From IMG/VR virus record IMGVR_UViG_3300024341_000001: a DNA stretch of 64,000 nucleotides; one strand, written 5' to 3'. Below, piece by piece: positions 28,815 to 60,834 of the stretch (the first letter of the stretch is position 1; each line of letters begins with the position of its first letter). The position numbers and the translations under genes are program-made. The DNA is from a virus (lineage: Duplodnaviria > Heunggongvirae > Uroviricota > Caudoviricetes). The notes below the pieces were generated by a model that saw only the letters and a program-made list of their open reading frames with translations, searched no databases and was not told where the DNA came from.

Positions 28815-31475
28815 ATGTTACAATTTAAATTATCAGACTTCGTACAAAAGTTTTTTTATCTTAATAATGAACCATTCAGTTTGGATGACTATCCACACAT
28901 GAAATTGATTTATGATATTGATCCAATGAAGTTGTGTTTACATACGAGTCGCCAAGTCGCTAAATCTACCACGCTGTCAAATTTCATGTTAGCTAAATGT
29001 ATTTTAATGCCATATGTTAGCAACAGGCATAAGGGTGGATTTAAAATTTTGGCAGTATCGCCCACTGTTGAACAGGTACGCGTATTTTCATATGATCGTG
29101 TTGATACTGTTATAGAACAAAGCCCGATATTTAAAAAATATTTTGTAAGTAGTTCCACAATTCAAAACGTATTCCAAAAACGTTTCCTTAATGGTAGTGT
29201 TATTTATTTACGTTATGGATCTGCAACTGCCGATCGTATTCGTGGTATATCTGCTGACATGAATTGTTTTGATGCAAATACAGAAATTCTCACCGAGAAT
29301 GGTTGGAAATTATTTAAAAATCTTCTCGACGATGAAAGAGTTGCTACAGTAAATGACAAAACGGGAATGGTAGAATATCATTTACCCGATATGTATATCC
29401 AAAAAGCATATCAAGGTAAACTAGTTAAATTTACGCAGCGCAGTTTTAATCTTTGCGTGACCCCTGATCATATAATGAACGTATCACAGGAATTAAGTAC
29501 TGGTTACTATCAGAATCCAAAAGTTAAAGGCTGGTTTAATATAAAAGCACAACAGTTAGCAGGAAAAAATTTTAAATTAGGTGTTAGGGGAAATTGGGAG
29601 TCAGCCAATCCCGTCGATTTTTAATTACCTGAACAAATTGTTGCAAATAAGTTAGACGGATCTCCGTATAAATATCCCAAAAAGATACCCAGTTTTTCAG
29701 CGCCATTGAAAATTTTCATGCAATTTATGGGGTGGTTTTTAGCTGAGGGGTATATATCTCCTGCGGGACAAATACGTATAATACAAAACGAAGGTGCATA
29801 CTCAGACGAAATTCGACATTGCTTAACAGCAATGGGAGTTAAATGGGGCGTTGTTGCCAGACATAATAAAAATGCTGTATGTAATACATTTTACTTTGCA
29901 AACGCTGCTTTATCTAGATACTTATATGCTTTGGGCACCTCGCATGATAAATATATACCTAGGGAATTATTAAATTACATACAATATCTACCGGACCTTT
30001 TAAATGCCTTATATAAAGGAGATGCCATGCATGTACAAGACTTCGGTCATAACGGGGGACAGTTAGTTACAGCATCAATCGAGTTAGCAAATACAGTACA
30101 GGAGGCATGGCTTCGCTTGGGGTATCTTTGTAGTATTAGAAGTCGAAAACCAGCATATAACGGAACAATTTTATATAACGTCGGACGCTATAAAAAAGAC
30201 AGCATAATATTTTGGAACGGATATACAAATAATTCGCGCATCGAATATATAGATTACATTGGACCAGTTTATTGTGTCGGCGTAAAGAATCACTTGATTT
30301 TTGTAAGAGATGCGATAGAAAAGTTACCTATAGTGTGTCATCAGTGTCTGGACGAAATCCAAGATATTCCCGATGATAACATCGATGTCATTGAACAAAC
30401 AATGGCGCGATCATTTTACAAACATTCGATATATGCAGGAACTCCAAAACATATTATCGGGCCATTAGCAAATCGATGGCGTCAGACTACTAGAAATGAA
30501 TGGATTGCAAAATGCCAGCATTGTGAGAAACAAAACTTTCTTGACGAAGAAAACATTCAACCATGGGGGCTTGCTTGTAGATATTGCAAAATGTCTCTAG
30601 ACGCGCGCAACGGACAATGGGTGCGTACAAATCCCGAATCAGACAAATCTATTCATGATGGATCGTACTTGTTTGAGGGGTTTAGAGTTAGTGTTTTAAT
30701 GTTTGCCCACGCGCCTTGGGTAAATTGGCAGACGGATGTTTATATACCATTTCAAACAAAATCCAAAGGCGTATTTTTTAACGAGTATCTAGGGCTACCA
30801 TATGATGCCGGTGTCGCTCCAGTAACCGAAGAGGAAATTAAAGCATGTTGCACTGGTGGGCCAATGATTCAGGAACCAGATCGTCGCACCAGAGATTATC
30901 CCACGTTTATGGGAATGGACTGGGGGCCAATTAACAGCGAAATGTCAAAAACGTTGATGACAATTTCGCAACGTCGCGGTGATGTTACAGAAATAATCTA
31001 CCTACATAAGTATGAAGGTAAAGAAGCTGATTATGCTTATCTACATGAGCATATACCGGCAGAATATTACAGATGGGGCTGTGCATTAATAGGAGCTGAT
31101 GCCGGTTTTGGTGAGGCAGTGAATGCTGAAGTACGAAATCGTATAAATGATAAAACCAGATTAATAGCATTTCAACATGTGCCGAATCAAAAACAACGTG
31201 GTCAGTTCAATGGGCATATTCAGGCATATACCTTATCTCGCAACACCGTGATGACTGATTTATTTACTAAGATAAAACAGCGGAAGATCGTTTTCCCGCA
31301 ATGGAGTGACTTTCAATATTATGCGAAAGATATACTGGCTATTGCGATTGAATATAACGAAGAAAAGAACACGTACAGATATATTAAGTCTGCCGCCGAC
31401 GACACCTTCCATAGCATTTTGTATGGAGACCTGGCTGCAGAATTATATTACCGTGCCTCTGCATTTAATAATTAA
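28815..31475 (+). CDS. terL: terminase large subunit (ATPase-nuclease), interrupted by an intein
   Basis: Walker A TSRQVAKSTT. The spliced junction ...ISADMN|CLDEIQD restores the Walker B hhhhDE motif. The C-extein carries a nuclease-type domain. N-extein = 28815..29264, C-extein = 30345..31475. There is an in-frame TAA at 29622..29624 inside the intein. Confidence 0.85.
29265..30344 (+). mobile_element. intein with LAGLIDADG homing-endonuclease domain (C-terminal Gln variant)
   Basis: Block A CFDANTEILTENGW (Cys1). Block B LCVTPDHIMNV (TxxH). LAGLIDADG motifs FMGWFLAEGYI and LLNALYKGDAM. Block G VYCVGVKNHLIFV, ending CHQ followed by the +1 Cys. 1080 nt = 360 codons. Confidence 0.8.
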
Positions 31476-37415: not shown

Positions 37416-38330
37416 ATGGAAAGTGTAAACACTAAAGCATTGAACGAAATTTTCGTTAACCGCCTTGATACTGAATTAGAGAAGGTGGCACAAGAGGTTG
37501 GTCAGTATATTCGTACCAAATTGCGTGAGAACGCATTTTCTCGCAAAATTATTAACCCACAATATGTAACTAAGGCTGATTTACAGCGTACTACATTACA
37601 CGAGCAATTAGTTAAAATCGTTGACATCGAACCGGATGCAGGTGCAATGATGATTACTCTACGCGGACAACCAGACGTTCAATACGTTGAAGGCGACCGT
37701 GCAGAGGTTTCTTTCTTTGGTATTAGTTCGAAAGAATTCCAAAAGGTTGAAGAAGAGCTATTAGCATATGAAATGCCAATAACTGAACTAGTTGAACGTA
37801 ATGCAGTAAAAGAGATCATGAAGATTGAAGATACAGCATTCATGACTGCAGTAGCAGCAGCAGTTGCAGCTTCGAGTAAGACGGTAACGTACACAACCAC
37901 AACTTCAGGAATTATGGAGTTGAACATGTTCACAAAACTATTCAACAAGATGGAAGATTCCACAACTGGAACAAATCCATTGGTAGTTGATGTAGTGTTA
38001 ATGAACCAAGCAGATTACAATAAACTAGCTACACTACCTGCAACGACAGTAGGTTCGCCGGCTGCAAGTGAAGTGTATATTAACGGTTTTAAATACGCAA
38101 CAATTTTGGGCAAAAAGTTCGTAACGACAATTAAGGGCGATTTGGTTCCAGAAGGCACAATGTATGCGTTCGCACCTCAGGAATTTATGGGTAAATTCTA
38201 TGTCCTAAACGATGTTAAATTCTGGATAGAGAAGAAACGTAACCTGATTAAGTGGTCCGCATATGAGACCATTGGTATGGCTATTATCAACAACAAGGCA
38301 GTTGCAAAATTAACTTGGTCAAATGCATAA
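37416..38330 (+). CDS. major capsid protein candidate
   Basis: Strong AAGGAG SD. 304 aa. Downstream of the scaffold genes. Followed by a strong terminator. Fits the portal-scaffold-capsid order. Confidence 0.5.
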   Translation: MESVNTKALNEIFVNRLDTELEKVAQEVGQYIRTKLRENAFSRKIINPQYVTKADLQRTTLHEQLVKIVDIEPDAGAMMITLRGQPDVQYVEGDRAEVSFFGISSKEFQKVEEELLAYEMPITELVERNAVKEIMKIEDTAFMTAVAAAVAASSKTVTYTTTTSGIMELNMFTKLFNKMEDSTTGTNPLVVDVVLMNQADYNKLATLPATTVGSPAASEVYINGFKYATILGKKFVTTIKGDLVPEGTMYAFAPQEFMGKFYVLNDVKFWIEKKRNLIKWSAYETIGMAIINNKAVAKLTWSNA

Positions 38331-42322: not shown

Positions 42323-43167
42323 AATTAACTGCCGTCGCAACTTGTAGAAATGATGGTTATCGGGGTGATTTACATTTACGAGTACCATTTAGTATTAATG
42401 CATTGACCGCCACATTCGATGAAGTAATTTATGTTGATTGGAATTCACCGTCAGGTATAGACTTGATAACAGCGCTTGGAGATGCCATAAATAAAACAGG
42501 TAAATTACGAGTATTAAAAGTAAATAAGGCACAAACAGATCAAGTCACAAAGAACGATCCTGGTGCGCCGGCAAGTTGTGGGTTACTAGGTAATAATATG
42601 GCAATACGTAGGTCCACAGGAGACTGGATATTAATAACATCATTAGATTCGATTGTACCCGATCGAGCATCATTTGAAAAATTAACCGCAGACCCAAAAA
42701 TAGGTTGGGTCATTTCTAGGCATGATGTAGATTTTGCGGAATTAAAACAATTTAATGCTAAAGATATAGAAGTTGTTCAAAGGTATTTTAGGGAAAATCT
42801 ACCAAGATATGGTGGGCACGGTTTTAGTGGGGCCTGCGCTGGTGATGTGTGGTCTATCCTTGATTGTTGTGGTGATTTTCAGTTTTTTCATAAAGACGTT
42901 TTATTTGAAATACGTGGTTATGAAGAAGAATATTTTTATAAAGGGTACACTGATAGTAATTTAAATAAGAAAGCTATTCTCGCAGGATATCCCGTAAAAC
43001 CATGTTTTGATATCGCTACCATGCATATGAGTCATCCGGGATATGGTTTCGGTGGAACCGGCTCACGAATAAATGACATCTACGGTTGTTTAATAAATGC
43101 AGGTGCTACCAAGAACGCCGCCACATGGGGCGCGTCTCCATTTACATTAGAAGAATTTACTGTATGA
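42319..43167 (+). CDS. GT-A fold glycosyltransferase (GT2-like)
   Basis: IYVDWNSPSG and LITSLDSIVPD resemble the GT2 nucleotide-binding/DXD motifs; RGYEEEYFYKG region. Confidence 0.4.
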   Translation: MKLTAVATCRNDGYRGDLHLRVPFSINALTATFDEVIYVDWNSPSGIDLITALGDAINKTGKLRVLKVNKAQTDQVTKNDPGAPASCGLLGNNMAIRRSTGDWILITSLDSIVPDRASFEKLTADPKIGWVISRHDVDFAELKQFNAKDIEVVQRYFRENLPRYGGHGFSGACAGDVWSILDCCGDFQFFHKDVLFEIRGYEEEYFYKGYTDSNLNKKAILAGYPVKPCFDIATMHMSHPGYGFGGTGSRINDIYGCLINAGATKNAATWGASPFTLEEFTV

Positions 43168-44525
43168 AAATTTTGTTCTGTATATATGAATTGGATTATG
43201 CTGATCATATAGCGATAGCGCACTTATCCGCTATTGCTAAAAAACGTGATCATCAGACATTTTTCTGTGCTTTAACAGATTATCCAACTGTTTTGAATTC
43301 ATATAAACCGGACATTGTAGCTTATTCTTTAAATGTTTATGGATATAAAGAAATGATTGATGCACATAAATTAGCGAAAACAAAACACAATTTTTTATCT
43401 ATAGCTGGTGGGCCTCAGATTACTTTTGCACCGCAAGATTTCGAAAACACGGCCATCGACGCTTTCTGTGTTGGCGAGGGAGATCTTGTATTTGATGACT
43501 TTCTTAAATGTGTAGAAAATAATGAATCCTACGACAATGTTTTAAATATAATAACAAAAGAAAAGATAAATCCTATACGACCACTCATTAGTGACTTAAA
43601 TATTTTGCCCGAAGCGGACAGGGATTTGGTGTTGAATAATTCCTTCTTAAAGAATACTCCTAAAAAAACCTTTTACGCTACAAGGGGATGCCCGTTCTTT
43701 TGTCATTATTGTGCAAATAGCGCGTATCGTGCTTTGTATAAAGGGAAGGGTAAATCTGCTAGACGGTTTTCACCAGATCGAATTATTGATGAAATACAAC
43801 GTGTTCGTAAAAATTATCGCACAGAGTTCATAAAATTCGGGGACGATCTTTTCGCATTAAAAGCAGATAGTTGGCTTGATGCGTTTACCCGTAGATATAA
43901 GAAGGAAGTAGATTTGCCGTTCAATTGCTATTTACGCATTGACCACGTAGATAAAGATTTACTTGCTATGTTGAAGTCCGCCAATTGCTACTCCGTTCAT
44001 CTATCCGTTGACAGTATGTCAGAACATGTGCGCGAAGCAGTATTGGGACGACATATGCAAAAGATCGATGTAACGAAAACAGCGCGTATGATCGCAGATA
44101 CAGGAATACGCACGTGGGTTAATTTTATGTTGGCGGCTCCTGAATCTACGGTGAAAGATGATATGGATATCATTGATTTTGGTTATAAAGGTAAGGTTAC
44201 ATATTTGGCCTGTTCAACTACAGTACCAATGAATGGTACCAAACTTTATGAATATAGTTTACAAAAAGGTATTCTTGATCCAACATATGTAGGAGATATG
44301 ACAGACTGTTCAAAGAAATCCCCGTACAAGTCTTTTTCTGAACGTGAAAAAGAAATACGCTATAATATTTTCTTACTTGGAAGTTTTGCGGCTAAATTAC
44401 CTAATCCATTACGCGCGTGTATGAAATTACTTATACGCTATATAAAACCTAATAAATTATTTATATTTGTCAGAGATAAGTATTACAAGTATAGTATAGA
44501 AAACAGAATTTTTAAATTAGCATAA
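43164..44525 (+). CDS. B12-binding radical SAM enzyme (class-B rSAM, methyltransferase-like)
   Basis: CPFFCHYCAN = CxxxCxxC radical-SAM cluster; N-terminal cobalamin-binding-like domain; ATG 43164 overlaps the upstream stop (ATGA). Confidence 0.6.
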   Translation: MKILFCIYELDYADHIAIAHLSAIAKKRDHQTFFCALTDYPTVLNSYKPDIVAYSLNVYGYKEMIDAHKLAKTKHNFLSIAGGPQITFAPQDFENTAIDAFCVGEGDLVFDDFLKCVENNESYDNVLNIITKEKINPIRPLISDLNILPEADRDLVLNNSFLKNTPKKTFYATRGCPFFCHYCANSAYRALYKGKGKSARRFSPDRIIDEIQRVRKNYRTEFIKFGDDLFALKADSWLDAFTRRYKKEVDLPFNCYLRIDHVDKDLLAMLKSANCYSVHLSVDSMSEHVREAVLGRHMQKIDVTKTARMIADTGIRTWVNFMLAAPESTVKDDMDIIDFGYKGKVTYLACSTTVPMNGTKLYEYSLQKGILDPTYVGDMTDCSKKSPYKSFSEREKEIRYNIFLLGSFAAKLPNPLRACMKLLIRYIKPNKLFIFVRDKYYKYSIENRIFKLA

Positions 44526-44527
44526 TT

Positions 44528-45181
44528 ATGGAATTATTTAGAGAAAAACAAAGAGAAATAACTATTACAAAACAAGAGCTCATTGATTTTGAAAGTGATG
44601 TCGCTGCTCGATGGGAACAAGGGCAAATAAAAGCTCCTGTTCACCTGTCTTTTAATAATGAGGATTATTTGATCGAATTATTTCAATTTATTCATCCAGA
44701 TGACTGGGTGTTTACAACTTGGCGAAATCATTATCATGCATTATTACACGGAGTTCCCAAAGATGAGTTATTAAATAAAATATTGGCAGGCCAAAGCATA
44801 TCATTTCAATCTCCACAACATCATCTTTATACGTCAGCTATCGTTGGTGGTATACTACCTATTGCAGTTGGTGCGGCGGCTGGACTGAAACTAAATCTTA
44901 ACACAACTCGCATGGTGTGGTGCTTTGTTGGTGATATGGCCAGTGAAAGTGGTATCTTTTACGAAGCAGTGAAGTATTCGGTACGTAATGATCTTCCTAT
45001 TCATTTTGTTATAGAAGATAATGGATTAAGCACAAATACGCCAACACAGGAAGCATGGGGTAAATTACGATCGGCCGAATTATTTGTAGATATTGAATCC
45101 CCCGAAAAATATATATCATATTTTAGTTATAAACGTGAACGCTATCCGCATGTAGGGATAGGGAAATGGATACATTTCTAA
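44528..45181 (+). CDS. TPP-dependent enzyme, PP-domain subunit (E1-alpha/transketolase-N-like)
   Basis: GDMASESGIFYEA...N...FVIEDNG = GDG-x(25-30)-N thiamine-diphosphate fold. Confidence 0.55.
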   Translation: MELFREKQREITITKQELIDFESDVAARWEQGQIKAPVHLSFNNEDYLIELFQFIHPDDWVFTTWRNHYHALLHGVPKDELLNKILAGQSISFQSPQHHLYTSAIVGGILPIAVGAAAGLKLNLNTTRMVWCFVGDMASESGIFYEAVKYSVRNDLPIHFVIEDNGLSTNTPTQEAWGKLRSAELFVDIESPEKYISYFSYKRERYPHVGIGKWIHF

Positions 45182-45726
45182 TGGACTATTTTGATGAATT
45201 AAAGCGAGCAATGAAGTATTTGGGCGAACAATCAAATACAAAGTTTATCGGACAATCAGTGGTGTGGGACGGTCATGCCTTATTTAAAAGTTTAGTAGAT
45301 GTGCCAATGGAAAAACGTATTGAATTACCAGTATTCGAAGATTTCCAGATGGGGCTTAGTATTGGTATGGCCTTGGAAGGAATAGTTCCAATCAGTATTT
45401 ATCCAAGAGCCGACTTTTTAATCATAGCTGCGAATCAAATAACTAACCATTTGGCAAATATACGTAAAGTATCCGAAGGCGGGTATAAACCTAAAATTAT
45501 AATACGAACTAGCGTCGGCGCTATCGAGCCGCTATATCCTGGTCCTCAACATTGTCAGGATCATACTGAGGCATTGAAGTTATTATGTCGCGGAGAAATT
45601 GAGGTTGTCCAATTAAAAAGTAAGTATGATATATTATATGCTTATTATATTGCATATACCCGAGAAGATGGTAAGTCTACAATATTAATTGAATACGGTG
45701 ATCTATATCATAAGGTGGAGGCATGA
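45166..45726 (+). CDS. TPP-dependent enzyme, pyrimidine-binding subunit (E1-beta/transketolase-C-like)
   Basis: FIGQSVVWDG...FEDFQMGLSIGMALEG transketolase-type Pyr domain; overlaps the partner gene. Confidence 0.5.
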   Translation: MDTFLMDYFDELKRAMKYLGEQSNTKFIGQSVVWDGHALFKSLVDVPMEKRIELPVFEDFQMGLSIGMALEGIVPISIYPRADFLIIAANQITNHLANIRKVSEGGYKPKIIIRTSVGAIEPLYPGPQHCQDHTEALKLLCRGEIEVVQLKSKYDILYAYYIAYTREDGKSTILIEYGDLYHKVEA

Positions 45727-46436
45727 TCGAGGTAAGTATTTTTGGTGCGGCAATACGTACTAATATTTGGCTTGAGTTATACGAGAATTTTCGCAAGGCA
45801 GGCGTTTCCTTTGAAATGATATTTGCTGGTCCTAACATACCATCATATACTTTACCCGATAATTTTAAACACATTCATACGTCGGTTAAACCCGCACAGG
45901 CAATTGAGATTACCAGACGAGCCTGCACCGGTCGATTTATAATGAATACGGCTGATGATATGTGTTATCCTGACGATATGTTAGCTAGATTTGTAGACGC
46001 GTGGGAAAAAGCACCGAATAAAAAAACAATGTTTTCGGGTAGATATGCCTCCGCAGATCTTATAAGTATTGAGAGTATACAACATTACAATATGAATGTT
46101 ATGACTAGTCCGTTAGTGCCCTTAAATGGATTCTTATCTAGAGAAACATCGGATGAAATCGGAGGGCTTGATACTAATTTTATAGGATTATATTGGGACC
46201 TGGATCGAGCATTACGTCTTTATGAATTAGGCGGACTTGTGCAAATTTTGTGGGATATCGCTGCATATGAAACACAGCCACATCAATTGTTAAATAATTA
46301 TGGTGCGGCAGATCGTATGTATTTAAATTTTCTTTATGGGGAATATGGGAAACAGAAAAGAAAGAAACCAGTAGATCATTATAAGGATAATGATCTATTA
46401 ACAATATCACAGGGGCAAAAAGGAAGCTGGACATGA
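45723..46436 (+). CDS. hypothetical protein of the sugar island
   Basis: 237 aa. Confidence 0.3.
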   Translation: MIEVSIFGAAIRTNIWLELYENFRKAGVSFEMIFAGPNIPSYTLPDNFKHIHTSVKPAQAIEITRRACTGRFIMNTADDMCYPDDMLARFVDAWEKAPNKKTMFSGRYASADLISIESIQHYNMNVMTSPLVPLNGFLSRETSDEIGGLDTNFIGLYWDLDRALRLYELGGLVQILWDIAAYETQPHQLLNNYGAADRMYLNFLYGEYGKQKRKKPVDHYKDNDLLTISQGQKGSWT

Positions 46437-47386
46437 AAAAAATATTAGTTTGTGGTTGCACAGGATTTATGGGGTATAATATTTCGTATTATTTTAGACA
46501 CGATTACGAAGTAGTGGGCGTTGCTCATACTAAAGCAAATTGTCCTGATAATATAAAATTATTATCGTGCGATCTAACAACGCAAAAAGGCGTAGATCAT
46601 GTGATGAGTTATGGCCCATATGATGTAATAATTCAAGCAGCCGCAACAACATCTGGATCGAAAGATATAACAACAAAACCTTACATACATGTAACTGACA
46701 ATGCTGTAATGAACTCATTGTTATTACGTGCGGCTTATGAACACAGTGTACCGCAGTTTATATTCCTGAGTTGTGGGGTGATGTATCAACCTGGGGACAC
46801 GCCGAGAAAAGAAACGGACTATGATGAATCGGATAAAATAGTACCGGCTTATTTTGGTGTCGGGTGGACTAAGGTATATATCGAAAAAATGTGTTAATTT
46901 TATTCAAGATTAGGTCGTACTAAACATATGGTTATACGACATTCGAATACTTTTGGACCACAAGATAAATATGATTATGAGCACTCACATGTATTCGGCG
47001 CCACGGTTAGAAAAGTAATGGATGCGGAGTACGGAGACACGATTACGGTGTGGGGTAATGGCACTGATACAGCACGCGATTTGATCTATGTCGACGATGT
47101 AGTACATTTTATTGATTTGGCTATTAACTTACAACATAAACCATACGATTTAGTGAATGTGTCTTATGGCAAAGCTATAACTGTAAAAGAAATGGTTGAA
47201 AGTATTATAGTGCAATCAGGCAAGGATTTAAAAATAACATATGACACTTCTAAACCCGCGATTCCAACTATTCTAGCGTTAGATAATAATAAAGCATTAG
47301 TTGACTATGGATGGAAGCCGCTACATACATTTTCACAGGGTATTTTTAAAACAATGAAATGGTATGGATCTGAATTTAAAGGCTAA
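46433..47386 (+). CDS. NAD-dependent epimerase/dehydratase interrupted by one in-frame TAA (46895..46897)
   Basis: GCTGFMG Rossmann motif. YFGVGWTKVYIEKMC = YxxxK block. The TAA sits in frame at one residue position of the conserved segment, and ...RHSNTFGP continues in the same frame (46928..47386 in the track). Confidence 0.5.
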
Positions 47387-48143
47387 ACAATTACGTAAGA
47401 AAATGTTTGAGACTGCGGTAAGGGCTGGTCGCGGTCATCTTGGCGGTGCGTTGTCATGCATGGACATATTAGTGTCGTTATATTATGGCGATATTGTTAC
47501 AAATGATACTAAATTTATTTTAAGTAAAGGCCATTCTGGGATTGCTTTATATACTGTACTTGCGGAACGTAACATTATATCTAACACCGAATTACATACA
47601 TTCTGCAAAAATGGTAGTTTGTTATCAGAGCATCCTAACAATCATATTCCTGGAATCATAACTATAACAGGATCGTTAGGTAATGGACTTGGTATTGGCG
47701 CAGGAATAGCTTTTGCCAAAAAACTTAATAATACTCCGGACAATGTTTTTGTATTAATGGGAGATGGCGAGTGCAATGAGGGGTCAGTGTGGGAAGCCGT
47801 ACGTTTTGCAGCTGTTCATGCCCTAACAAATTTACGAGTCATTGTTGATTGCAATGGATTTCAGTCCACCGATGCTGTGGATAAAAACACCACATATAGA
47901 CAGTTAATGAAAATATGGTCGGCATTTGGATGGATGTCGTATGTTGTGGATGGACACAATATTTTGCATTTGATAGAAGCCTATAAAAATGCATCTATAG
48001 TAACACCGACAGTTTATATAGCTCGTACAGTAAAAGGTAAAGGAATATCCTTTATGGAGAATAATGTAACAAGTCACCACGGATTACCAAATAAGGGTGA
48101 TACAATTTCTGCATTGGAGGAATTATCATATGGACTTGCGTGA
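47364..48143 (+). CDS. transketolase, N-terminal subunit
   Basis: GHLGGALSCMDI, SKGH, GSLGNGLGIGAGIA, MGDGECNEGSVWEA, IVDCNG. Confidence 0.7.
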   Translation: MDLNLKAKQLRKKMFETAVRAGRGHLGGALSCMDILVSLYYGDIVTNDTKFILSKGHSGIALYTVLAERNIISNTELHTFCKNGSLLSEHPNNHIPGIITITGSLGNGLGIGAGIAFAKKLNNTPDNVFVLMGDGECNEGSVWEAVRFAAVHALTNLRVIVDCNGFQSTDAVDKNTTYRQLMKIWSAFGWMSYVVDGHNILHLIEAYKNASIVTPTVYIARTVKGKGISFMENNVTSHHGLPNKGDTISALEELSYGLA

Positions 48144-49008
48144 TGCTATTTTTAATGAATTAATATTATTGGCAGATACATCTAAAGATGTATTTATATT
48201 ATCAGCCGACATGGGTGCTACCGAATTAGACAAATTTAAAGCAAAATATCCAAAACAATTTGTCAATGTTGGTATATCAGAACAGAATCTCATAAACGTT
48301 GCTGCCGGCATGGCAATGGAAGGTAAGAGAATATATGTATACACTATTGCCGCATTTCTTATTCAACGTGCCTTAGAACAGATAAAAGTAAATCTATGTG
48401 CTATGAAGTTACCTGTTACGTTAATAGGCATCGGTGGTGGGATGAGTTATAGTTATGATGGATTAACACATCATATACCACAAGACATAGGAATCTTGAA
48501 TACATTACCTAATATTGAAATTTTTGTACCTTTTGATGAAAGTAGTATGAGGAATTCGGTACATATTCTCAAGAACTCAACGACACCTCGGTATATTCGA
48601 CTTGACAAAGGAATTTATCCAGACTTACCAGCAATAACTTCCAATAATTATGTTCATGTTTTGAGGCAAGGAAGAACTCGGGCCGTTTTAACTTATGGCA
48701 CTTTAACGCACGAAGCATTGGATACTTTTCCGGAGGCTGGATGCATTTGTGTAGAGCGATTAAAACCATTAGATGAGGGTGAATTTCTGAAAGCCATAAA
48801 ACCATATCAAGAATTAATAGTATATGAGGAACATTCAAAAATAGGTGGATTAGCCTCTATTGTAGCATCGCTTTTATTACAACATGGGTTGGACAAGAAA
48901 TTAAATGTTTATGCGTTTGAAGATGAATATTGTAATATAGCGGGAGATCGTATTTATATCAATAATAAATTTTTAAAGAAAGTGGAGAGTAATAATGTCG
49001 TGGACTGA
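48097..49008 (+). CDS. transketolase, C-terminal subunit
   Basis: GISEQNLINVAAGMAMEG pyrimidine-binding motif plus C-terminal domain. Confidence 0.7.
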   Translation: MIQFLHWRNYHMDLRDAIFNELILLADTSKDVFILSADMGATELDKFKAKYPKQFVNVGISEQNLINVAAGMAMEGKRIYVYTIAAFLIQRALEQIKVNLCAMKLPVTLIGIGGGMSYSYDGLTHHIPQDIGILNTLPNIEIFVPFDESSMRNSVHILKNSTTPRYIRLDKGIYPDLPAITSNNYVHVLRQGRTRAVLTYGTLTHEALDTFPEAGCICVERLKPLDEGEFLKAIKPYQELIVYEEHSKIGGLASIVASLLLQHGLDKKLNVYAFEDEYCNIAGDRIYINNKFLKKVESNNVVD

Positions 49009-49699
49009 TCATGGTGCCGTGAATACAATTAAGGGGTTAGCAAGGGAATTTAAAGTAGAAACATATATAGAAACAGGCACATTTCGAGGACAAGGAATAC
49101 AAATAGCGGCGCGTTATTTTAAACACGCTTATTCATGTGAAATCATTGAGGATTTTTATACTGATGTTGTGTTAAGAACTATAAATAAACATAATATAAA
49201 AATTTTCCACATGGATAGTTCAAAATTCTTAAAATATATATCTACAACATTAAATGAACCGCTCATTTATTATTTGGATGCTCATTTTTACGATCCCAGT
49301 CTACCTAAAGAATTACGTTTTGTTGTAAAACAAGAATTAGCATCAATGGCCCCATCCAATAACTGTATCATTATAATACATGATTTTGATACTAGAAACG
49401 GATTAGGCCATATTACATATGACGGCATACCTTTGGATTTTGAGATAGTGCGTGATAACCTTTTGAAGATAAATCCGCGATTTTCTTTTTATACCAATTA
49501 TAAAGAAGCCTGCGATATAGTAACCGAGAAAGACTTCATAGATGGTAAAATGGATCCGTTGTTGCTTGACGATGAAATGAGAGATACGTTAAAATTCATA
49601 TGGTCAGCCCCACAGAAAACTTATCGTGGGCTATTGTACTGTATACCTAGAGATGTAAATGCATCTAAATATCATTTAAGAAAGGTGAATTGGAGATGA
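48995..49699 (+). CDS. putative SAM-dependent methyltransferase (FkbM/TylF-like)
   Basis: YIETGTFRGQG glycine-rich motif-I-like segment. Confidence 0.35.
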   Translation: MSWTDHGAVNTIKGLAREFKVETYIETGTFRGQGIQIAARYFKHAYSCEIIEDFYTDVVLRTINKHNIKIFHMDSSKFLKYISTTLNEPLIYYLDAHFYDPSLPKELRFVVKQELASMAPSNNCIIIIHDFDTRNGLGHITYDGIPLDFEIVRDNLLKINPRFSFYTNYKEACDIVTEKDFIDGKMDPLLLDDEMRDTLKFIWSAPQKTYRGLLYCIPRDVNASKYHLRKVNWR

Positions 49700-50421
49700 A
49701 TGTACTAATAACTGGCGGAACGCATGGTATCGGATGGGCCATCGCTAACAGATTTGCTATCGACGACCGTAACGAACATATTTATATAGCTGCTCGACAT
49801 GTAGATGATTTAGCTCATTCCTATGTATATGAAGGTATACAAGCCGATTTTACGAACACAGTAGATATAGGAAAAGTTGCTGAACAGATAAAGAATCTAC
49901 ATATCGACATTCTTATAAATAATGTAGGAGGTGGAGGGCGTTGGGGTACAGATGATGTTTTAACAACTCCCGAAGAATCTTGGGATGGTGTGATATTAAA
50001 AAATTATGAAACGGCACGACAGTTAACCCTGGCCGCGTTGCCGTGGATGAAACAAAATAATTTTGGCCGCGTTGTTACTATTTCGTCCATCTATGGTAAG
50101 GAATCCGGAGGACGTCCGTGGTTCACTGTAGCAAAAGCAGCTGAGATTGCGTTAATGAAATCGTTAGCGATACGAAAAGAACTGGTTCGACATAATATTA
50201 CATTTAATACGGTATGTCCTGGTGCGATAGCAATTCCTGGGACGGGATGGGATAAATTAACGCCGGAAGAAAGAAGTACATTCGAGGAAACATTACCGTT
50301 AGGGCGTATGGGAACGCCGGAAGAAGTTGCCGCTTTGGTTTGCTTCTTATGTTCGGAAGAGGCGAGTTTAATAAATGGAGCATGTATAACCGCAGATGGC
50401 GGAGAAAGCAGGAGTTTTTAA
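49690..50421 (+). CDS. short-chain dehydrogenase/reductase (SDR)
   Basis: LITGGTHGIGWAIA = TGxxxGIG; catalytic Ser/Tyr/Lys region. Confidence 0.6.
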   Translation: MEMNVLITGGTHGIGWAIANRFAIDDRNEHIYIAARHVDDLAHSYVYEGIQADFTNTVDIGKVAEQIKNLHIDILINNVGGGGRWGTDDVLTTPEESWDGVILKNYETARQLTLAALPWMKQNNFGRVVTISSIYGKESGGRPWFTVAKAAEIALMKSLAIRKELVRHNITFNTVCPGAIAIPGTGWDKLTPEERSTFEETLPLGRMGTPEEVAALVCFLCSEEASLINGACITADGGESRSF

Positions 50422-51419
50422 TGTTGAGACAATCAGAATACGATGAATTTAGAGGAAAGAAAGTTTTGGTAATAGGCGGCACAGGATTAATAGGTCGTCC
50501 TGTTGTTGATATTTTAGTTAACGCCGGCGCCATCGTTACTGTGGTATCATTAGACGATCTTCAGCCAAATCGATTAGCAGAATATGTATATTTGGATCTA
50601 CGATATTTCAATGCCGCAGAGTTTATAACTAAAGGAATGGATTATGTATTTCATTTGGCGGGTATCAAAGGATCGATTGAAGTTACAAAAACGAAACCAG
50701 CTAGTTTTTTTGTGCCCTTGTTACAATTTAATACAAACATACTTGAAGCATGTCGTATTAATAACGTAAAAAAAGTCGCCTTCACTAGTTCTATTGGCGC
50801 ATACGAAAGTGCTGAAATATTTCACGAAGACGGTATAACGCAAGGGCTACCGATGGATATGTATCCAGGTTGGGCAAAGCGCATGGCTGAGTTACAAATA
50901 CAGGCTTATAAAGAACAATACGGTATTAAAAATTTTGTCGTATTGCGTCCTTGTAATGTCTATGGTCCTGGAGATAACTTCGATCCAAATAATGCAATGG
51001 TTGTGCCTTCGTTGATGTATCGTATTGCTTCGGGCGAGAACCCTGTAAAAATATGGGGGGATGGTTCAGCAATTCGTGACTTTGCTTATAATGTAGATGT
51101 AGCTGAGGGTATTATACAAGCAATGCATTATATGCCAGATGTAAATTATATTAATTTGGGCAGTGGCAAGGATTATACAATAAAAAATTTAGTTGATACA
51201 CTACATGAGTTTATTGATTTCAATCATGAATGGGATACAACAAAATCAAACGGATTTCCAAAACGCGTTATGGATATAACGAAAGCGCGTATGTTAATAA
51301 ACTTTGAACCTATCACTACATTACGCGATGGATTAGAACATACGTGGAAATGGTTTTTAGCAAACAAAGAAGAGTATTTAAAGAGAAAGAATTATTTTAA
51401 TGAAGATAATAGACACTAA
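50421..51419 (+). CDS. NAD-dependent NDP-sugar epimerase/reductase
   Basis: VLVIGGTGLIGRPV Rossmann; YPGWAKRMAE YxxxK; ATG 50421 overlaps the SDR stop (TAATG); the track start 50340 is an extension. Confidence 0.55.
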   Translation: MLRQSEYDEFRGKKVLVIGGTGLIGRPVVDILVNAGAIVTVVSLDDLQPNRLAEYVYLDLRYFNAAEFITKGMDYVFHLAGIKGSIEVTKTKPASFFVPLLQFNTNILEACRINNVKKVAFTSSIGAYESAEIFHEDGITQGLPMDMYPGWAKRMAELQIQAYKEQYGIKNFVVLRPCNVYGPGDNFDPNNAMVVPSLMYRIASGENPVKIWGDGSAIRDFAYNVDVAEGIIQAMHYMPDVNYINLGSGKDYTIKNLVDTLHEFIDFNHEWDTTKSNGFPKRVMDITKARMLINFEPITTLRDGLEHTWKWFLANKEEYLKRKNYFNEDNRH

Positions 51420-51909
51420 ATTTGAAAAAGCAAAATTAATTATACCAGAGGTATTCTATGATTTTCGTGGCGAATACTTAGAGACCTTCAACAAAGAGAA
51501 CTACAAAGCATTAAATGTACCAGATGAATTTATACAAGATGATATTTCAATTTCATACAAGCATGTCCTTCGAGGATTCCACGGTGATTTTAAAACATGG
51601 AAATTGGTACAATGTGTGTACGGCAGTATATACGTTGTTATTATTGATAATAACAAAGAGTCTAAAACATATTATCAATGGCAAGCATTTACACTAAATG
51701 ACAAAAATCGTTATCAGTTATTAGTGCCGCCAGGATTCGGCAATAGTCTGCTAGCTATGACGGACATTATCGTGTATAGTTATAAGCAGACTACATATTA
51801 TGAACGTGCGTCGCAGTTTACTATAGCTCCATTTAATCCTTATCTAGGAATTTACTGGCCGATAGCAAAAGAGAACATTATTATATCAGAAAGGGATAGA
51901 AATGCCTAA
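51400..51909 (+). CDS. dTDP-4-dehydrorhamnose 3,5-epimerase-like (RmlC cupin)
   Basis: DFRGEYLETF, VLRGFHGD, KLVQCVYGSIYVVIID, LLVPPGFGNS follow the RmlC motif order. Confidence 0.65.
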   Translation: MKIIDTKFEKAKLIIPEVFYDFRGEYLETFNKENYKALNVPDEFIQDDISISYKHVLRGFHGDFKTWKLVQCVYGSIYVVIIDNNKESKTYYQWQAFTLNDKNRYQLLVPPGFGNSLLAMTDIIVYSYKQTTYYERASQFTIAPFNPYLGIYWPIAKENIIISERDRNA

Positions 51910-52927
51910 TTATCTTATAACCGGTGCCACTGGATTTGTTGGTTCACATATGATTGATTATTTATTAGCTAATACTGATGGCATGATTTACGCTTCTAGA
52001 CGTTGGCGCAGTCGTGACGAGAATATAGTACATTTGTACGGTAATCCGCGAGTCAATTTCATAGAGGCGGATCTGATGGATCGTGGCAGTCTAAGTTTGT
52101 TATTGCGAAAAGCAAAACCAGATATTATTTGGCATTTTGCCGCCCAGAGTTTTCCTGAAACGAGTTTTATTTATCCGATACATACTTTACAAACAAATAT
52201 CATTGGAACTGCCAATTTATTAGATGAAATACATCTTGCGGTATTAGATGGCCGTATAGATCCGATTATAGTAAGTGTTAGTTCCAGCGAAGTATATGGT
52301 ATGCCGGATCCTTCAGAAGTGCCTATAAAAGAAACTAACCCAATTAGAGCGGCAAATCCATATAGTATATCAAAAGTCGGACACGATCTGATGTCACAGT
52401 ATTATCATAAAGCATTTGGATTAAAAATAATAACTACCAGGATGTTTAGTCACGAAGGTGCACGCCGGGGAAGGAAATTTGCATTATCTAGTTTTGCATA
52501 TCAAATTGTACAAGGCGAAATGCAGTATAGACAAGATATAAATAATCGCTCTTATGGAAATTCAAAATATATAATTCGTGTGGGAAATCTTAATTCTGTG
52601 CGCACTTATGCTCATATAGACGATGCTGTACATGCTTATTGGTTAGCCGCCAATAAATGTACAGTCGGCGAAGTTTATAATATAGGTGGCAATCACACAT
52701 GTACTGTCGGTGAAGCATTAAATGATTTAATATCTAAAAGTTATATACAACCAACTGATTTCAAAATAGAAATAGATTTAGCATTAATCAGGCCTACTGA
52801 TATTACACTACAAATACCCGATTGTACTAAATTTATGCAAGCTACTGGATGGAAACCAACAAAAGGTCTTGATGATATAAATAAGGATCTTTTAATTTAT
52901 TGGAGAAACGTATTGCGCCGGTCGTAA
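51902..52927 (+). CDS. NDP-sugar 4,6-dehydratase/epimerase (extended SDR)
   Basis: ITGATGFVGSHMIDYLL; SSSEVYG; YSISKVGHD YxxxK. Confidence 0.6.
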   Translation: MPNYLITGATGFVGSHMIDYLLANTDGMIYASRRWRSRDENIVHLYGNPRVNFIEADLMDRGSLSLLLRKAKPDIIWHFAAQSFPETSFIYPIHTLQTNIIGTANLLDEIHLAVLDGRIDPIIVSVSSSEVYGMPDPSEVPIKETNPIRAANPYSISKVGHDLMSQYYHKAFGLKIITTRMFSHEGARRGRKFALSSFAYQIVQGEMQYRQDINNRSYGNSKYIIRVGNLNSVRTYAHIDDAVHAYWLAANKCTVGEVYNIGGNHTCTVGEALNDLISKSYIQPTDFKIEIDLALIRPTDITLQIPDCTKFMQATGWKPTKGLDDINKDLLIYWRNVLRRS

Positions 52928-52946: not shown

Positions 52947-54980
52947 ATGATAGTACATAGAAAAGACGGTTGGCACGTATTGTCCGAAAAAGGCAAGAAT
53001 TTGGGCGGGCCGTATTCATCACGTTCAGCGGCTGTACATAGACTTCAACAGGTTGAATATTTTAAGCATAAAGGAAAAGCAGGTGCTTTAGGTATTCCTG
53101 ATCGGGACGTAAAAACACGTCCACGCGAATTCTCTACACCAGAAAATTGGCACTTTAATGTGCAACAGCATAAAGCGCATAAGGCTGGAGAACATTTCGA
53201 TTTACGACTTGTTGATCCACGTACCGGAATTGCACATAGTTGGGCCGCTCGTAACTTACCTAAGTTTCCAGGCGAAAAAGTTCTTGCTGTGCATCAACCT
53301 GATCATACTGCAGAGTACTCGGCATGGTCTGGTGAAATCAAATCAGGTTACGGCGCTGGAACAGTAAAGTTATTCTCAGCGGATAAGGTTGAAGTTACTA
53401 AAAGTACACCTGATCATGTATCTTTTAATGTGTATAAGTCTAATGGCGACACTGAAAAATATACTTTAATACATACTGGTGGGGATGATTGGCTGTTTAT
53501 GAACTCTACACCTACGCGAGATACTCGACCAGAAGTTAACATTTCGAAACCTAAATTTCAAAGTATAAAGCCTGAATCCATCGATGTAACAAAGTCGACC
53601 GAGATATTAGCACCGAAGTATGATGGAGCAATGAATGCGTTTTTGCTTAGACGTGGAATGCCTATTGAAATATACTCTTATCGTCCAAGCAAGAAAGGAC
53701 CTGCAAAGTTAATTAATCATACGTTTCGTACTGGACTTCATACTGCAATAGTTCCGGAGAGTATGCCAGGCAAAACAGTATTATTAGGAGAACTATTTGC
53801 AAAAGATAGAACATCTGGTAATGTTTTATCATCAAGAGACACTGCAGCTAGATTATTGTCAAATGTATGGCGTTCAAGAGAACTCCAAGAAAACGCGCCG
53901 CTTGATCATGTAGTTTTTGATGTGGTTCGTTATCAAGGTAAAGATGTAAGTAGTCATCCATATAGTGAAAAACTCGAGATACTAAAAAATATTTCAAAAG
54001 AAATACCAGAATTAAAAATGCCGCCGCTAGCGACGACTATAAATGAAAAACAAGTATTACTAGATGAAATACGTTCTGGCAACCATCCGTTAACACAAGA
54101 GGGCGTTGTAGTATATGATTTAAATAAGTCGGTACCATTGAAGGCAAAATTATTCAAAGATTATGATGTACGTATAATGTCGGTATTTCCGGGGGAAGGA
54201 AAATATAAAAATAAAGCTGCTGGTGGATTTACTTATTCATACAATGGTAAAGAGGAAATTGGTCGGGTTGGTAGTGGATTCACAGATCAAATGAGAAAAG
54301 AAATGTTTGAACTTCCAAATAAATATGTAGGACAGGTAGCGCGTGTGCTGGCGCAGGAGAAATTACCAAGTGGTGCACTTCGTATGCCTGTATACAAAGA
54401 CATTAGAAGTGAAACTTGGCCAAGACGCAAACAAGCTGCATTACTTGAACCGTTTCACAAAAAAGCACCGGATCCAAAAATACATAAAGGTTTAAAGACT
54501 GTTCAGACAGCTACATTAAACGATACATCTGCACCAATGCCTGTATTAGGAGATTCTATGAGTAATTATCATCCAGCATTTACTAAGACTGGATTAATTA
54601 AACTGAAATTTAAACCAACAAGACCAGATGCGCAATTAAACATAGCCAGATTAAAGGAAATGCGTATACCGCCGGACGATCCACAACAAATGCAAACCGA
54701 AGATAGTATACCGATTCTGGGTGATAATTTGGCAAATATGCCAAAGACGGGCGGAATAGATTGGAAACATATGACAAAAGAATATTTGTTACCATCATTG
54801 GTTGCTGGCCCTGTAATTGGTACTGCGGTAACTGCAGCCACCTCATCGAAAAATGAGTTTAATAAAAATATTGGAAAAGGAATAGCCACTGGTATAGGTA
54901 TCGACCTAGCCACTGGATTAAGTATGGGATTATGGAATCAACGGAAGAATCTGAAGAAACTATTCAAGACAAAACTATAA
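52947..54980 (+). CDS. LigD-like 3'-phosphoesterase + ATP-dependent DNA ligase fusion with Gly-zipper C-terminus
   Basis: PE domain: HKAGEHFDLRLV, SWAARNLPK, LAVHQPDHTAEY, GYGAGTVKLF match the LigD PE H-x-D-x-R/H/Y core. Ligase motifs: KYDGAM (I), LLGELF (III), EGVVVYD (IV), KAKLFKDYD (V). C-terminal VAGPVIGTAVTAA...GIATGIGIDLATGLSMGL. Confidence 0.65.
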   Translation: MIVHRKDGWHVLSEKGKNLGGPYSSRSAAVHRLQQVEYFKHKGKAGALGIPDRDVKTRPREFSTPENWHFNVQQHKAHKAGEHFDLRLVDPRTGIAHSWAARNLPKFPGEKVLAVHQPDHTAEYSAWSGEIKSGYGAGTVKLFSADKVEVTKSTPDHVSFNVYKSNGDTEKYTLIHTGGDDWLFMNSTPTRDTRPEVNISKPKFQSIKPESIDVTKSTEILAPKYDGAMNAFLLRRGMPIEIYSYRPSKKGPAKLINHTFRTGLHTAIVPESMPGKTVLLGELFAKDRTSGNVLSSRDTAARLLSNVWRSRELQENAPLDHVVFDVVRYQGKDVSSHPYSEKLEILKNISKEIPELKMPPLATTINEKQVLLDEIRSGNHPLTQEGVVVYDLNKSVPLKAKLFKDYDVRIMSVFPGEGKYKNKAAGGFTYSYNGKEEIGRVGSGFTDQMRKEMFELPNKYVGQVARVLAQEKLPSGALRMPVYKDIRSETWPRRKQAALLEPFHKKAPDPKIHKGLKTVQTATLNDTSAPMPVLGDSMSNYHPAFTKTGLIKLKFKPTRPDAQLNIARLKEMRIPPDDPQQMQTEDSIPILGDNLANMPKTGGIDWKHMTKEYLLPSLVAGPVIGTAVTAATSSKNEFNKNIGKGIATGIGIDLATGLSMGLWNQRKNLKKLFKTKL

Positions 54981-57015: not shown

Positions 57016-58659
57016 ATGGCATATAATCCGCCTCAAGTAGAGGTAAATCAAATTCAAAAGACAGTTTCTCCAACACTAATTCAGCCAGATTTAGTACCGG
57101 CTGTTATTGGCCCAGCGTACCATGTAGAAGCATTAGATTCAACCAAAGACAGTGATTATGCTGTATTTGATGGCTCACAGACAACTTATACATTGCATGG
57201 TTTTGAAGCAGGAATGGCTTTAGATTCGACGTCAGTCTATGTTGATCTAGTTATGAAAGCTACTGGTACAGTGACCAATCCAGTGGGATCTCGTCTTATT
57301 ATAGCAAGTGGACTGACGATAGATGCGAATGCCGGCACAGTGACCGTTCCGGCTAATGCTGATTGGAATGGCGCCTCTGTGTTTATCGGTTATCGCGCAT
57401 TACGTTCAGATCTGATGTCGGTAGAATTATATGAATCTTTACAAGCCGTTGTAGATGAAATGACAGATGTATCGGCGCTGAATCCGTTGGGATTTGCGTT
57501 GGTCGAGACTTTGAATAACGGTAACGCAGCTACATATGCATACGGAACTGTTGTTGACGATTTTGCATCTATTACTTGTAATGTGTCAGGTATTGCAACT
57601 GCCTCAGCAAGTCACACGTTGGCTATGACAGATTTAGAAGCAAAAGAAGTGTACGCGTTAGCGCCATTAACTTATGATACAGCAATTATTGCAAATTATA
57701 AAACACATGTAAACGCTATGTCGTTATCGACAGCTAAGAAAGAGCGAATAGTGTTTGGTGGGCCTAAGATTCCTTGGGGTGCATCAAAAGCAGCTACTGC
57801 GACCGCTTATTCTGCAATGTCGGCCGGCGTAGGCGCAAAACGCGTTATTTACGTTTTCCCTGATGTAGCATTTATAAGAGAACTAAGACATATCTCAACA
57901 TTGAGACCCCAGTATATTAGTGATTTATATACGAGCGGTTATAGTGTAACTGTAAATGCATACATCGATCAATTAGTAACATTTAGTGCCACCAATTCAC
58001 AAACAGCTTACCGAAATTACACAGTTCGTCCAGTTGCTGGACTTGGTGTAGAAATAACTGAAGCACTATGGTTGGCATTAAGAGCGCATGCTATGGAAAC
58101 TGGTGATGTGTTCTTTTATGCTTATGTACCAGTACCTATTTCAGTAATAGGTGTGCCAGCAGTAGCAGGCATGATTGCGGGAAATACACCACAACAACCA
58201 ATGACGAACCTTTCGTTAGCAAACATTAATTCACTAAAATATAGTTCCGATTATTTCACTGAAGCACAATTAAATACAATCGCACAAGGCGGAACTTATA
58301 TTTTGAAGCAATCAAAACTCACGTCTCCTATCGTATGTCGTCATCAGTTATCGACCGACATGAGTTCGATAGAAAAACGTGAAGTAAGTATTACAAAAAC
58401 TGTAGATTATACAGCGAAATTTGTACGTAGTGCCGTAGAGCCATTTATTGGTAGATATGTAATTAATCGTGCTACATTAGATATGATTACAATCGCGATA
58501 AAGGGCGCCGGTAGCTTGTTAATACGTGATGGAATTTTGAATGATTTTGTTGTAGCATCTGTTGCACAGGATACTGTAAGCAGGGATACTGTGTTGGTAA
58601 GTATAACAATATTACCACCATATCCAGTAAATTATATTAAGATCGATTTGATATTCTAA
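57016..58659 (+). CDS. large structural protein (tail/fibre candidate)
   Basis: 547 aa, beta-rich. Confidence 0.35.
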   Translation: MAYNPPQVEVNQIQKTVSPTLIQPDLVPAVIGPAYHVEALDSTKDSDYAVFDGSQTTYTLHGFEAGMALDSTSVYVDLVMKATGTVTNPVGSRLIIASGLTIDANAGTVTVPANADWNGASVFIGYRALRSDLMSVELYESLQAVVDEMTDVSALNPLGFALVETLNNGNAATYAYGTVVDDFASITCNVSGIATASASHTLAMTDLEAKEVYALAPLTYDTAIIANYKTHVNAMSLSTAKKERIVFGGPKIPWGASKAATATAYSAMSAGVGAKRVIYVFPDVAFIRELRHISTLRPQYISDLYTSGYSVTVNAYIDQLVTFSATNSQTAYRNYTVRPVAGLGVEITEALWLALRAHAMETGDVFFYAYVPVPISVIGVPAVAGMIAGNTPQQPMTNLSLANINSLKYSSDYFTEAQLNTIAQGGTYILKQSKLTSPIVCRHQLSTDMSSIEKREVSITKTVDYTAKFVRSAVEPFIGRYVINRATLDMITIAIKGAGSLLIRDGILNDFVVASVAQDTVSRDTVLVSITILPPYPVNYIKIDLIF

Positions 58660-59393: not shown

Positions 59394-59771
59394 TTATACT
59401 TTAGGTCTTTTACTATGTCCGATGTCATCAAGTTCTACAGGCAGTTCTCCATTGTTGATACGTTCCAATGTATGTAAATATGCGAACATATTCCAACTTA
59501 CTGCACTAACATGATCCTCGTCAGTTTGTCCCTCCATGACACATATTAAGTGTCTGAAAGCACTATCTAGATAACGGCCTAATGGCTGACCTTTTTCCCA
59601 GTTACGATCACCATATTTTACAGCACCGTTTTCGTAATGTCTTGCTAATCTACGCAGAGGTATTGTGGGTATTAGATCAAAACGTCCTTTACCTTCACGA
59701 GTATCTCTCCGTGAGCCAGTGACAAACTCTTCCCGTACTCCGTTGTCTTTTACTGAATTAAATTCTTGCAT
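59394..59771 (-). CDS. hypothetical protein
   Basis: 125 aa. Confidence 0.3.
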   Translation of the reverse strand: MQEFNSVKDNGVREEFVTGSRRDTREGKGRFDLIPTIPLRRLARHYENGAVKYGDRNWEKGQPLGRYLDSAFRHLICVMEGQTDEDHVSAVSWNMFAYLHTLERINNGELPVELDDIGHSKRPKV

Positions 59772-60064
59772 TAATTTTTATAGAAAAATTTTGATATATT
59801 TTCGATGTCTTTTGCTATATAAGCCAGACTGGTACTTGAATACCGATCGTTCAACTTATTCAGCTCCGCTGGTATAGAACTTAATGCACCAGTCAATACG
59901 CGAAAGCTATCTGTTAAGTCACATAATGCCATTCCTTGCGCATATTTTGTTGCTATATTGTAACGCTCATATTCTGTTAATTTAGTACCTTCTGTCAGTT
60001 CTAATCCCTTCATGAAATAATATTGAAATCCATTCATTATTTCTTCCAATAGGGGGCTATGCAT
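59771..60064 (-). CDS. hypothetical protein
   Basis: 97 aa. Confidence 0.3.
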   Translation of the reverse strand: MHSPLLEEIMNGFQYYFMKGLELTEGTKLTEYERYNIATKYAQGMALCDLTDSFRVLTGALSSIPAELNKLNDRYSSTSLAYIAKDIENISKFFYKN

Positions 60065-60834
60065 GATTCAACTTTTATTTTTACGTTTTTTACGTAAAGC
60101 TCACCTGCTTCTAACATGCATTTTCGAAGCATAGCTTCGGCTTCTTCAGCCTGAGATTTTTTCACGTTTAGTATAATCTCATCATGAATTGTGCAAATAA
60201 TCTTTGCAGTTGATTTACTTTTTTTTATTTCTTCGCGTATGTGTGTAAGAGCAATTTTTGTTATACTAGCATTTCCCGACTGCATCGGAAAATTCATTGT
60301 CATATTACGCACGCGAGCGCGCTCTTTATTGGAATCGAAATCGAATCCTTCTAGCCAGCGCAATCTATTATCATATGGCGAACGCACACATCTATTAGTT
60401 ATGCACTTCGCAACATATGCGTCAAAGAAGTTTTTGACGTTTGGGAAACTAGCCCAATAACTATTAATTATTTGTCGGGCCTCCGCAAAAGGTATTTTTG
60501 CTTCTCTCGCGAGTTTTTGTGCCCCCATTCCATATGAAATTCCGAAATTAAGCGATTTTACAATTTTGCGTAATTCAAGATTTTCACCTGGGTCGTCGGG
60601 CCCATTAGTACCTTTTAGTCGTATAGGTTTTCCCATAACTACGGAACCAATTTCGCAGTGCATATCTAAATTCTTTTCAAAAATTTCCATCCATTTAGGT
60701 TCTTTTGAAAGGTCTGCGAGAATTCGCAATTCCATATTTGAGTAGTCAGCATCTACTAACAAATCTTCGTCCGTGTGAGCAACAAATGCTTCACGGTATA
60801 GCGATGTATCTTTTACAGGTATATTTTGTAAGTT
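60037..60834 (-). CDS. polA: family-A DNA polymerase, exon 2 (palm/fingers: motifs A, B, C)
   Basis: NLQNIPV...DYSNMELRILA (motif A), RKIVKSLNFGISYGMG (motif B), CTIHDEII (motif C); the ORF-track ATG 60837..60835 is the last 3 nt of the intron. Confidence 0.85.
   Translation of the reverse strand, partial: NLQNIPVKDTSLYREAFVAHTDEDLLVDADYSNMELRILADLSKEPKWMEIFEKNLDMHCEIGSVVMGKPIRLKGTNGPDDPGENLELRKIVKSLNFGISYGMGAQKLAREAKIPFAEARQIINSYWASFPNVKNFFDAYVAKCITNRCVRSPYDNRLRWLEGFDFDSNKERARVRNMTMNFPMQSGNASITKIALTHIREEIKKSKSTAKIICTIHDEIILNVKKSQAEEAEAMLRKCMLEAGELYVKNVKIKVESCIAPYWKK

Follow-up and report, generated by a model that had tools for sequence, protein, structure and literature searches.

An in-frame TAA in the epimerase gene of a jumbo phage is private to one assembly and most likely technical in origin

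Introduction

Is a TAA codon that interrupts a conserved phage enzyme read as an amino acid, or is the gene intact in the phage and broken only in the sequence at hand? The question is raised by a sugar-nucleotide epimerase gene in a 64,000-nucleotide stretch of a tailed-phage genome (hereafter the window), where two open reading frames in the same frame are separated by a single TAA. A preliminary description of the window proposed that the two frames form one protein in which the stop is either a substituted sense codon or a decoded TAA, and pointed to a second such case within the intein of the terminase gene. The features concerned are listed below.

46433..47386, + strand: extended-SDR NDP-sugar epimerase/reductase, 317 codons, recognised by Pfam PF01370, by homologs and by an intact counterpart (P0242); interrupted in the present assembly only
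46433..46897, + strand: N-terminal fragment ORF, 154 aa, from the Rossmann motif through the helix with catalytic Lys147; on record as P0121
46895..46897, + strand: in-frame TAA with T at base 46895, against G (GAA, Glu155) in 6/6 other assemblies covering the site
46928..47386, + strand: C-terminal fragment ORF, 152 aa, with an internal ATG start; on record as P0241
28815..31475, + strand: terminase large subunit with intein, 886 codons if intact; an intact 886-aa form (P0243) is present in JGI, Logan and ENA
29265..30344, + strand: LAGLIDADG intein, 360 codons, CFDANTE...PIVCHQ and then Cys+1; absent from the related terminases of L060 and L061
29622..29624, + strand: second in-frame TAA with T at base 29622, against A (AAA, Lys270) in 3/3 other assemblies covering it (L072, L073, L074)

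Results

One epimerase, interrupted at a single residue

The two epimerase ORFs lie in one frame and their open stretches are parted only by the TAA at 46895-46897. When both halves were joined with X at the stop, the 317-aa product gave a single PF01370 (Epimerase) match that runs unbroken across the stop, residues 4-241 aligning with profile positions 1-237 of 240 (E=4e-34), and the N-terminal GxxGxxG Rossmann motif is present as G8-C-T-G11-F-M-G14. Protein searches returned thousands of full-length relatives of ~320 aa, the best of the full-length matches listed being 67-68% identical. In an alignment with 25 full-length homologs (55-68% identity, ~320 aa) the stop column is gap-free, is occupied by Glu in 23 homologs and by Gln in the other 2, and sits in the nearly invariant stretch YFGVGWTKVYIEKMC-E-FYSRLGRTKH. 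The preliminary description was thus right to treat the two frames as one contiguous family member in which the stop takes up one residue position with no change in length; the possibility that the halves belong to different proteins is answered by the one PF01370 stretch and by the intact P0242.

Judged by sequence, the gene belongs to the extended SDR epimerase/dehydratase family, within a subfamily whose active-site stretch is the non-canonical Y-F-G-V-G-W-T-K (residues 140-147, window 46850-46873). The canonical YxxxK is absent from this subfamily: Val143 is nearly invariant and Tyr140, Phe141, Gly142 and Lys147 are invariant. The best match among solved structures was E. coli GDP-L-fucose synthase GMER (1e7q, E=2e-19), also known as GDP-4-keto-6-deoxymannose epimerase-reductase (PDB 1e7q, 1bsv), which has the extended-SDR fold layout in common with the phage enzyme although the similarity is distant. 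GMER catalytic Lys140 aligns with phage Lys147, and the position of its canonical catalytic Tyr is Val143 in the phage subfamily. Across the homolog and GMER alignments, Ser113 is invariant and the invariant Tyr140 lies three residues before the canonical Tyr position. Since the stop column aligns with GMER Glu148, eight residues past the catalytic Lys, a product ending at the TAA would be without the remainder of the Rossmann fold and the entire substrate-binding domain.

The genomic setting also differs from that of GMER in that the phage epimerase adjoins a split transketolase pair and does not have a GDP-mannose dehydratase as its neighbour. The surrounding sugar-nucleotide cluster of ~10 kb (43164-52927, + strand) has the major head protein (37416-38330) to its left and the tail sheath (57016-58659) to its right. 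It comprises a B12-binding radical SAM enzyme, a split TPP-dependent E1-like enzyme, the epimerase, the split transketolase, SDRs, an RmlC-like 3,5-epimerase and a 4,6-dehydratase, and next to it on the 3' side comes an ATP-dependent DNA ligase that carries a LigD phosphoesterase domain (52947-54980). Portions of this cassette recur in unrelated viral contigs, for example L010.

The stop is confined to one assembly

Searching with the N-terminal half returned P0121 (154 aa, 100% identical), whose one source is a JGI contig of 214,965 bp. Clustering at 90% groups P0121 with two other proteins, the 152-aa C-terminal half from the same contig (P0241) and the 317-aa P0242, which equals the joined window protein with Glu at the stop and is otherwise identical. 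Genes for P0242 occur on 15 contigs of JGI, Logan and ENA assemblies; the longest measures 215,168 bp, and seven belong to the 0.2-1 Mb class. Many assemblies exist of the phage, a jumbo phage with a genome of ~215 kb, and at least eight other samples yielded it independently, at 99.9-100% identity. For four assemblies from four different runs (L066, L068, L070 and L071, 8.6-21 kb), the sole difference from the window is base 46895, G instead of T; L067 and L069 also have G, giving GAA in every one of the six assemblies that cover the site. Apart from the TAA, the gene is base-for-base identical to the intact alleles. A decayed pseudogene was accordingly rejected as a candidate, there being no further disabling lesions or relaxed constraint after the first stop.

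The relatives in IMG/VR are distant only (68% aa identity for the epimerase, 84% for the terminase), exact-pattern scans around the stop recovered L065 only, a 68%-identical relative with GAA at the site, and a megablast search of phage records with the epimerase region and 20 kb of the structural module gave no match.

A survey of the 64-kb window for further same-frame ORF pairs (each of at least 60 aa) yielded two split genes only, the epimerase and the terminase. The second case is real and its local context is as had been described, tttTAAtta in the terminase and tgtTAAttt in the epimerase. The terminase stop falls within the intein, after the N-terminal splicing region and ahead of the endonuclease domain. 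Over this site P0243 reads ...NPVDFKLPEQ... and the gene is called as one 886-aa protein, and the two terminase halves (P0244 and P0245) are recorded solely from the 214,965-bp contig. The bounds of the intein were set by its absence from the related terminases in L060 and L061. It is inserted at the Walker B region of the terminase (...GISADMN / CFDANTE...PIVCHQ / CLDEIQ), and its C-terminal end is His-Gln instead of His-Asn, with Cys at +1, a position at which the L060 and L061 terminases have Leu.

Against the independent assemblies covering positions 1-64000, the private differences of the window amount to two substitutions, both making TAA, and no indels. Both are purine-to-T changes (G>T at 46895 and A>T at 29622), both come from the one 214,965-bp contig, and neither TAA allele is found in any other assembly covering the respective site. 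The alignment of assemblies shows the stops as private to the present one, with GAA and AAA as the wild-type codons, and by the same comparison the epimerase TAA is not a property of the phage. Of the two options originally offered, substitution stands (GAA>TAA) and decoding does not, sense codons being present in all other assemblies that cover the sites. A sense codon at 46895, which the preliminary description had sought in raw reads as evidence against recoding, is found in the closest available form, that is in other assemblies and not in reads; independent assemblies of the same genome settled the epimerase case without reads.

Differences among assemblies are dominated by G:C>T:A and look unselected

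Pooling the differences between assemblies gave 37 distinct variants, of which 30 are G:C>T:A, 2 are A>T and 5 are transitions, four of these last falling in one 47-nt patch. The coding effects of the 32 changes to T:A were compared with those of random substitutions of the G:C>T:A and A>T types in this sequence. Missense changes number 24 (75%, expected 73%), synonymous changes 3 (9.4%, expected 11%), nonsense changes 3 (9.4%, expected 9.7%) and non-coding changes 2 (6.3%, expected 5.7%), and many of the missense variants are radical (Pro>His, Gly>Cys, Asp>Tyr). Because the classes match random expectation, the pooled variation is without purifying selection and looks unselected. The probability that both of two private changes are nonsense is ~0.009 with the observed spectrum and 0.0024 with a uniform one, values that are inflated by ascertainment since it was the stops that drew attention to the window; over all assemblies taken together, a nonsense fraction of 3/32 is unremarkable.

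The ENA MEGAHIT assembly (ERZ27250200; L067 and L085) carries ~1 G:C>T:A-type change per kb. Here too the terminase is in two pieces (P0247 and P0248), P0247 ending after residue 414. Since the next wild-type codon, GGA, becomes a stop by G>T only, we infer that the break is a GGA>TGA change at window-equivalent position 30057, which would be an independent third nonsense change. Assemblies of this phage demonstrably acquire purine-to-T changes irrespective of coding effect, even in an essential gene. The G:C>T:A pattern looks like oxidative-damage noise in libraries, C>A/G>T being a documented signature of oxidative damage during library preparation (PMC3616734).

Differences that are almost exclusively G:C>T:A were seen in L067 and L085 (ENA ERZ27250200), in L075 and L084 (JGI 3300024300) and in L069, L074 and L077 (SRR7616076). 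The 47-nt patch is of another kind. It spans 6946-6992 in an ORF at 6821-7219 (- strand) and holds five substitutions that are common to the ENA and SRR7616076 assemblies. Unlike the scattered G>T changes, it probably reflects a true polymorphism between strains or a short recombined segment.

Stop usage and the search for a suppressor

Among 90 likely genes in the window, TAA is the terminator of 63 (~70%), TGA of 20 and TAG of 7. Global reassignment of TAA, already judged unlikely in the preliminary description because most genes end in this codon, is excluded by these counts. The commonest terminator signal in the window is TAAT, the tetranucleotide at both in-frame stops, and in E. coli this signal ranks as the strongest. 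In ~82 kb of the ~215-kb genome (the window plus flanks of 10 kb on the left and 8 kb on the right) no tRNA with anticodon UUA was found, ARAGORN found no tRNA within the 64-kb window, and no Rfam element was found at the epimerase stop. Three tRNA genes (Met-CAT, Val-TAC and Ser-GCT) lie 2.4-3.9 kb past the right end of the window (L079 4202-5635), with an HNH endonuclease gene among them.

As a recoding candidate the epimerase TAA fails each testable defining feature. An in-frame stop that is kept in close relatives is not what is seen at either site, GAA standing at 46895-46897 in 6/6 and AAA at 29622-29624 in 3/3 other assemblies; nor is the codon depleted as a terminator and present in many in-frame copies, since TAA is the main terminator and just two split genes were found in 64 kb. 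Recoded phages (TAG>Gln, code 15, and TGA>Trp, code 4; Borges et al., bioRxiv 10.1101/2021.08.26.457843) have in common with the present case in-frame stops in conserved genes of large phages, including a structural or packaging gene. In them, however, many such stops are kept across relatives, the recoded codon seldom ends a gene and suppressor tRNAs are common, whereas here there are two TAA codons that are private to one assembly and no suppressor was found in ~82 kb. The same surveys describe recoding of TAG and TGA, with TAA as the preferred stop.

Discussion

Origin of the two stops

We consider that the epimerase and terminase TAAs are private, unselected base changes that reached the consensus of one contig and are most likely technical, and would give this reading a probability of about three in four. 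In the phage the gene is normally an intact 317-codon epimerase, the full-length enzyme being made from the GAA codon with nothing decoding TAA. The epimerase stop is a G>T change of GAA (Glu155) to TAA in one metagenomic assembly, and the terminase-intein stop would be of the same origin, an A>T change of the Lys codon AAA. Possible sources are DNA damage, library preparation, sequencing, assembly, or lesions and mutations on very few template molecules. We infer that the cause is technical and not a real mutation in the sample, and the assembly-error alternative of the preliminary description fits the finding that both stops are private to one assembly. The change at 46895 is of the type expected from oxidative damage (8-oxoG), and it resembles the artefacts reported by Costello et al. 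2013 (PMC3616734) in being G>T; among the assemblies of the phage, the spectrum is likewise dominated by G:C>T:A and the coding effects look unselected. Those artefacts, however, are described at low allelic fraction, whereas the phage change sits in a consensus contig, and the second stop is unlike them; being A>T, the change at 29622 is not of the classic 8-oxoG type. The length of the contig (215 kb) suggests reasonable coverage, at which low-fraction artefacts should be outvoted. Both points speak against a technical origin, as does, subject to the ascertainment noted above, the low probability that both private changes are nonsense. The shared TTAATT context after mutation is, on present evidence, a coincidence. 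At both stops the new T copies the preceding base, which would, speculatively, fit a phasing-type miscall. Two further candidates were discarded: a methylation-motif basecalling error at RAATT, given that such sites are abundant and only two are changed, and a diversity-generating retroelement, given that one of the changes is at G.

The stops might instead be real and recent nonsense mutations (GAA>TAA in the epimerase, an accessory gene, and AAA>TAA in the terminase intein), the defective genome being kept by co-infection with intact ones, or few virions having been sampled; we regard this as unlikely, although it is the alternative that deserves most weight. The split proteins come from a public JGI assembly as long as the full genome, true oxidative or apurinic-site mutagenesis likewise yields G>T and A>T, and very recent mutations would show no purifying selection, just as the pooled variants do not. 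What disfavours real mutants is that the companion change truncates the essential terminase and that the two disabling changes stand alone, with no neutral private one beside them. Truncation of the terminase would be expected to kill the phage, and a nonsense codon in such a gene should not survive selection as a real majority allele; neither allele, moreover, occurs in any other assembly. Classical ochre (UAA) phage mutants are likewise single-base sense-to-TAA changes that truncate a phage protein, and are viable only with suppression or complementation. They were selected in the laboratory on suppressor hosts, and no sign of such selection is seen here.

Ochre suppression or programmed readthrough, in which a phage or host suppressor tRNA would decode TAA (for example as Glu, Gln or Lys) and full-length proteins would be made, appears highly improbable. 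It would suit the replacement of single residues in otherwise intact and conserved genes, the phage does encode tRNAs just beyond the window, and ~133 kb of the genome lies beyond the ~82 kb scanned for tRNAs. The low-level suppression or readthrough that had been suggested for this phage is nevertheless not supported, all independent assemblies covering the epimerase (six) and the terminase (three) sites having sense codons there. No tRNA(UUA) was found in the window or its flanks, TAA with TAAT is the usual way in which genes end here, no Rfam element marks the stop, and surveyed recoded phages recode TAG or TGA and keep TAA as their stop of choice (bioRxiv 10.1101/2021.08.26.457843). Since even genomes that are 99.99% identical lack the stops, a suppressor would at most account for tolerance of the TAA alleles and not for a programmed feature. 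A readthrough-stimulating RNA structure was set aside, the downstream sequence being identical in genomes without the stop. Least credible of all is a functional two-piece enzyme, made by restart at the ATG at 46928 and reassembly of the fragments, with the terminase restored by trans-splicing of intein halves. This ATG is 10 codons 3' of the stop, and the intein is cut between its N-terminal splicing region and its endonuclease domain, where natural split inteins are divided. Against this, no recognisable ribosome-binding site was seen before 46928, the epimerase is cut inside its Rossmann fold just past the catalytic Lys, and the sequence equals that of the unsplit genomes save for one base, with no adaptation to the split state.

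Implications

A lone in-frame stop in a phage genome assembled from a metagenome can be a consensus error private to that assembly. The G:C>T:A noise in several public assemblies, including another artificial terminase stop, is a warning for pseudogene, split-gene and alternative-code calls that are made from single assemblies. We hold it very improbable that the TAA alleles are real in a viable lineage, either through ochre suppression by a tRNA(UUA) of the host or of the ~133 kb of phage genome beyond the scanned part, or as a nascent trans-splicing split intein in the terminase; if they were, natural decoding of TAA would be seen for the first time in a phage, or a split intein would be caught at its birth.

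Neighbouring features

Several other features of the window and its flanks were recorded. The family-A DNA polymerase is in two ORFs on the - strand (61090-62106 and 60037-60837), whose Pfam matches meet at profile positions 128 and 127 of 381. In the gap between the ORFs sits a group I intron (60883-61117, - strand; Rfam RF00028, E=2e-17, 69.4 bits where the gathering score is 50), which was missed by the whole-window Rfam scan at the gathering threshold and found by a local scan by E-value. Directly upstream of the polymerase, in the same frame, is a phage sigma-70 family factor with regions 2, 3 and 4 (62107-62907, - strand). Also adjoining the polymerase is a 125-aa protein (59394-59771, - strand) with a dATP/dGTP diphosphohydrolase N-terminal domain (PF18909, E=9e-19). 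In phages with modified bases, such enzymes have been linked to editing of the nucleotide pool; nothing PurZ-like was seen among the genes of the ~82 kb examined. On the left flank, ~2.4-5.2 kb from the window (L085 13576-16448), a PARP-like protein (PF00644, with a weak WGR match) is encoded near an NAD synthase-family protein, and beyond this pair lie an RNA ligase and a ClpP-like protease.
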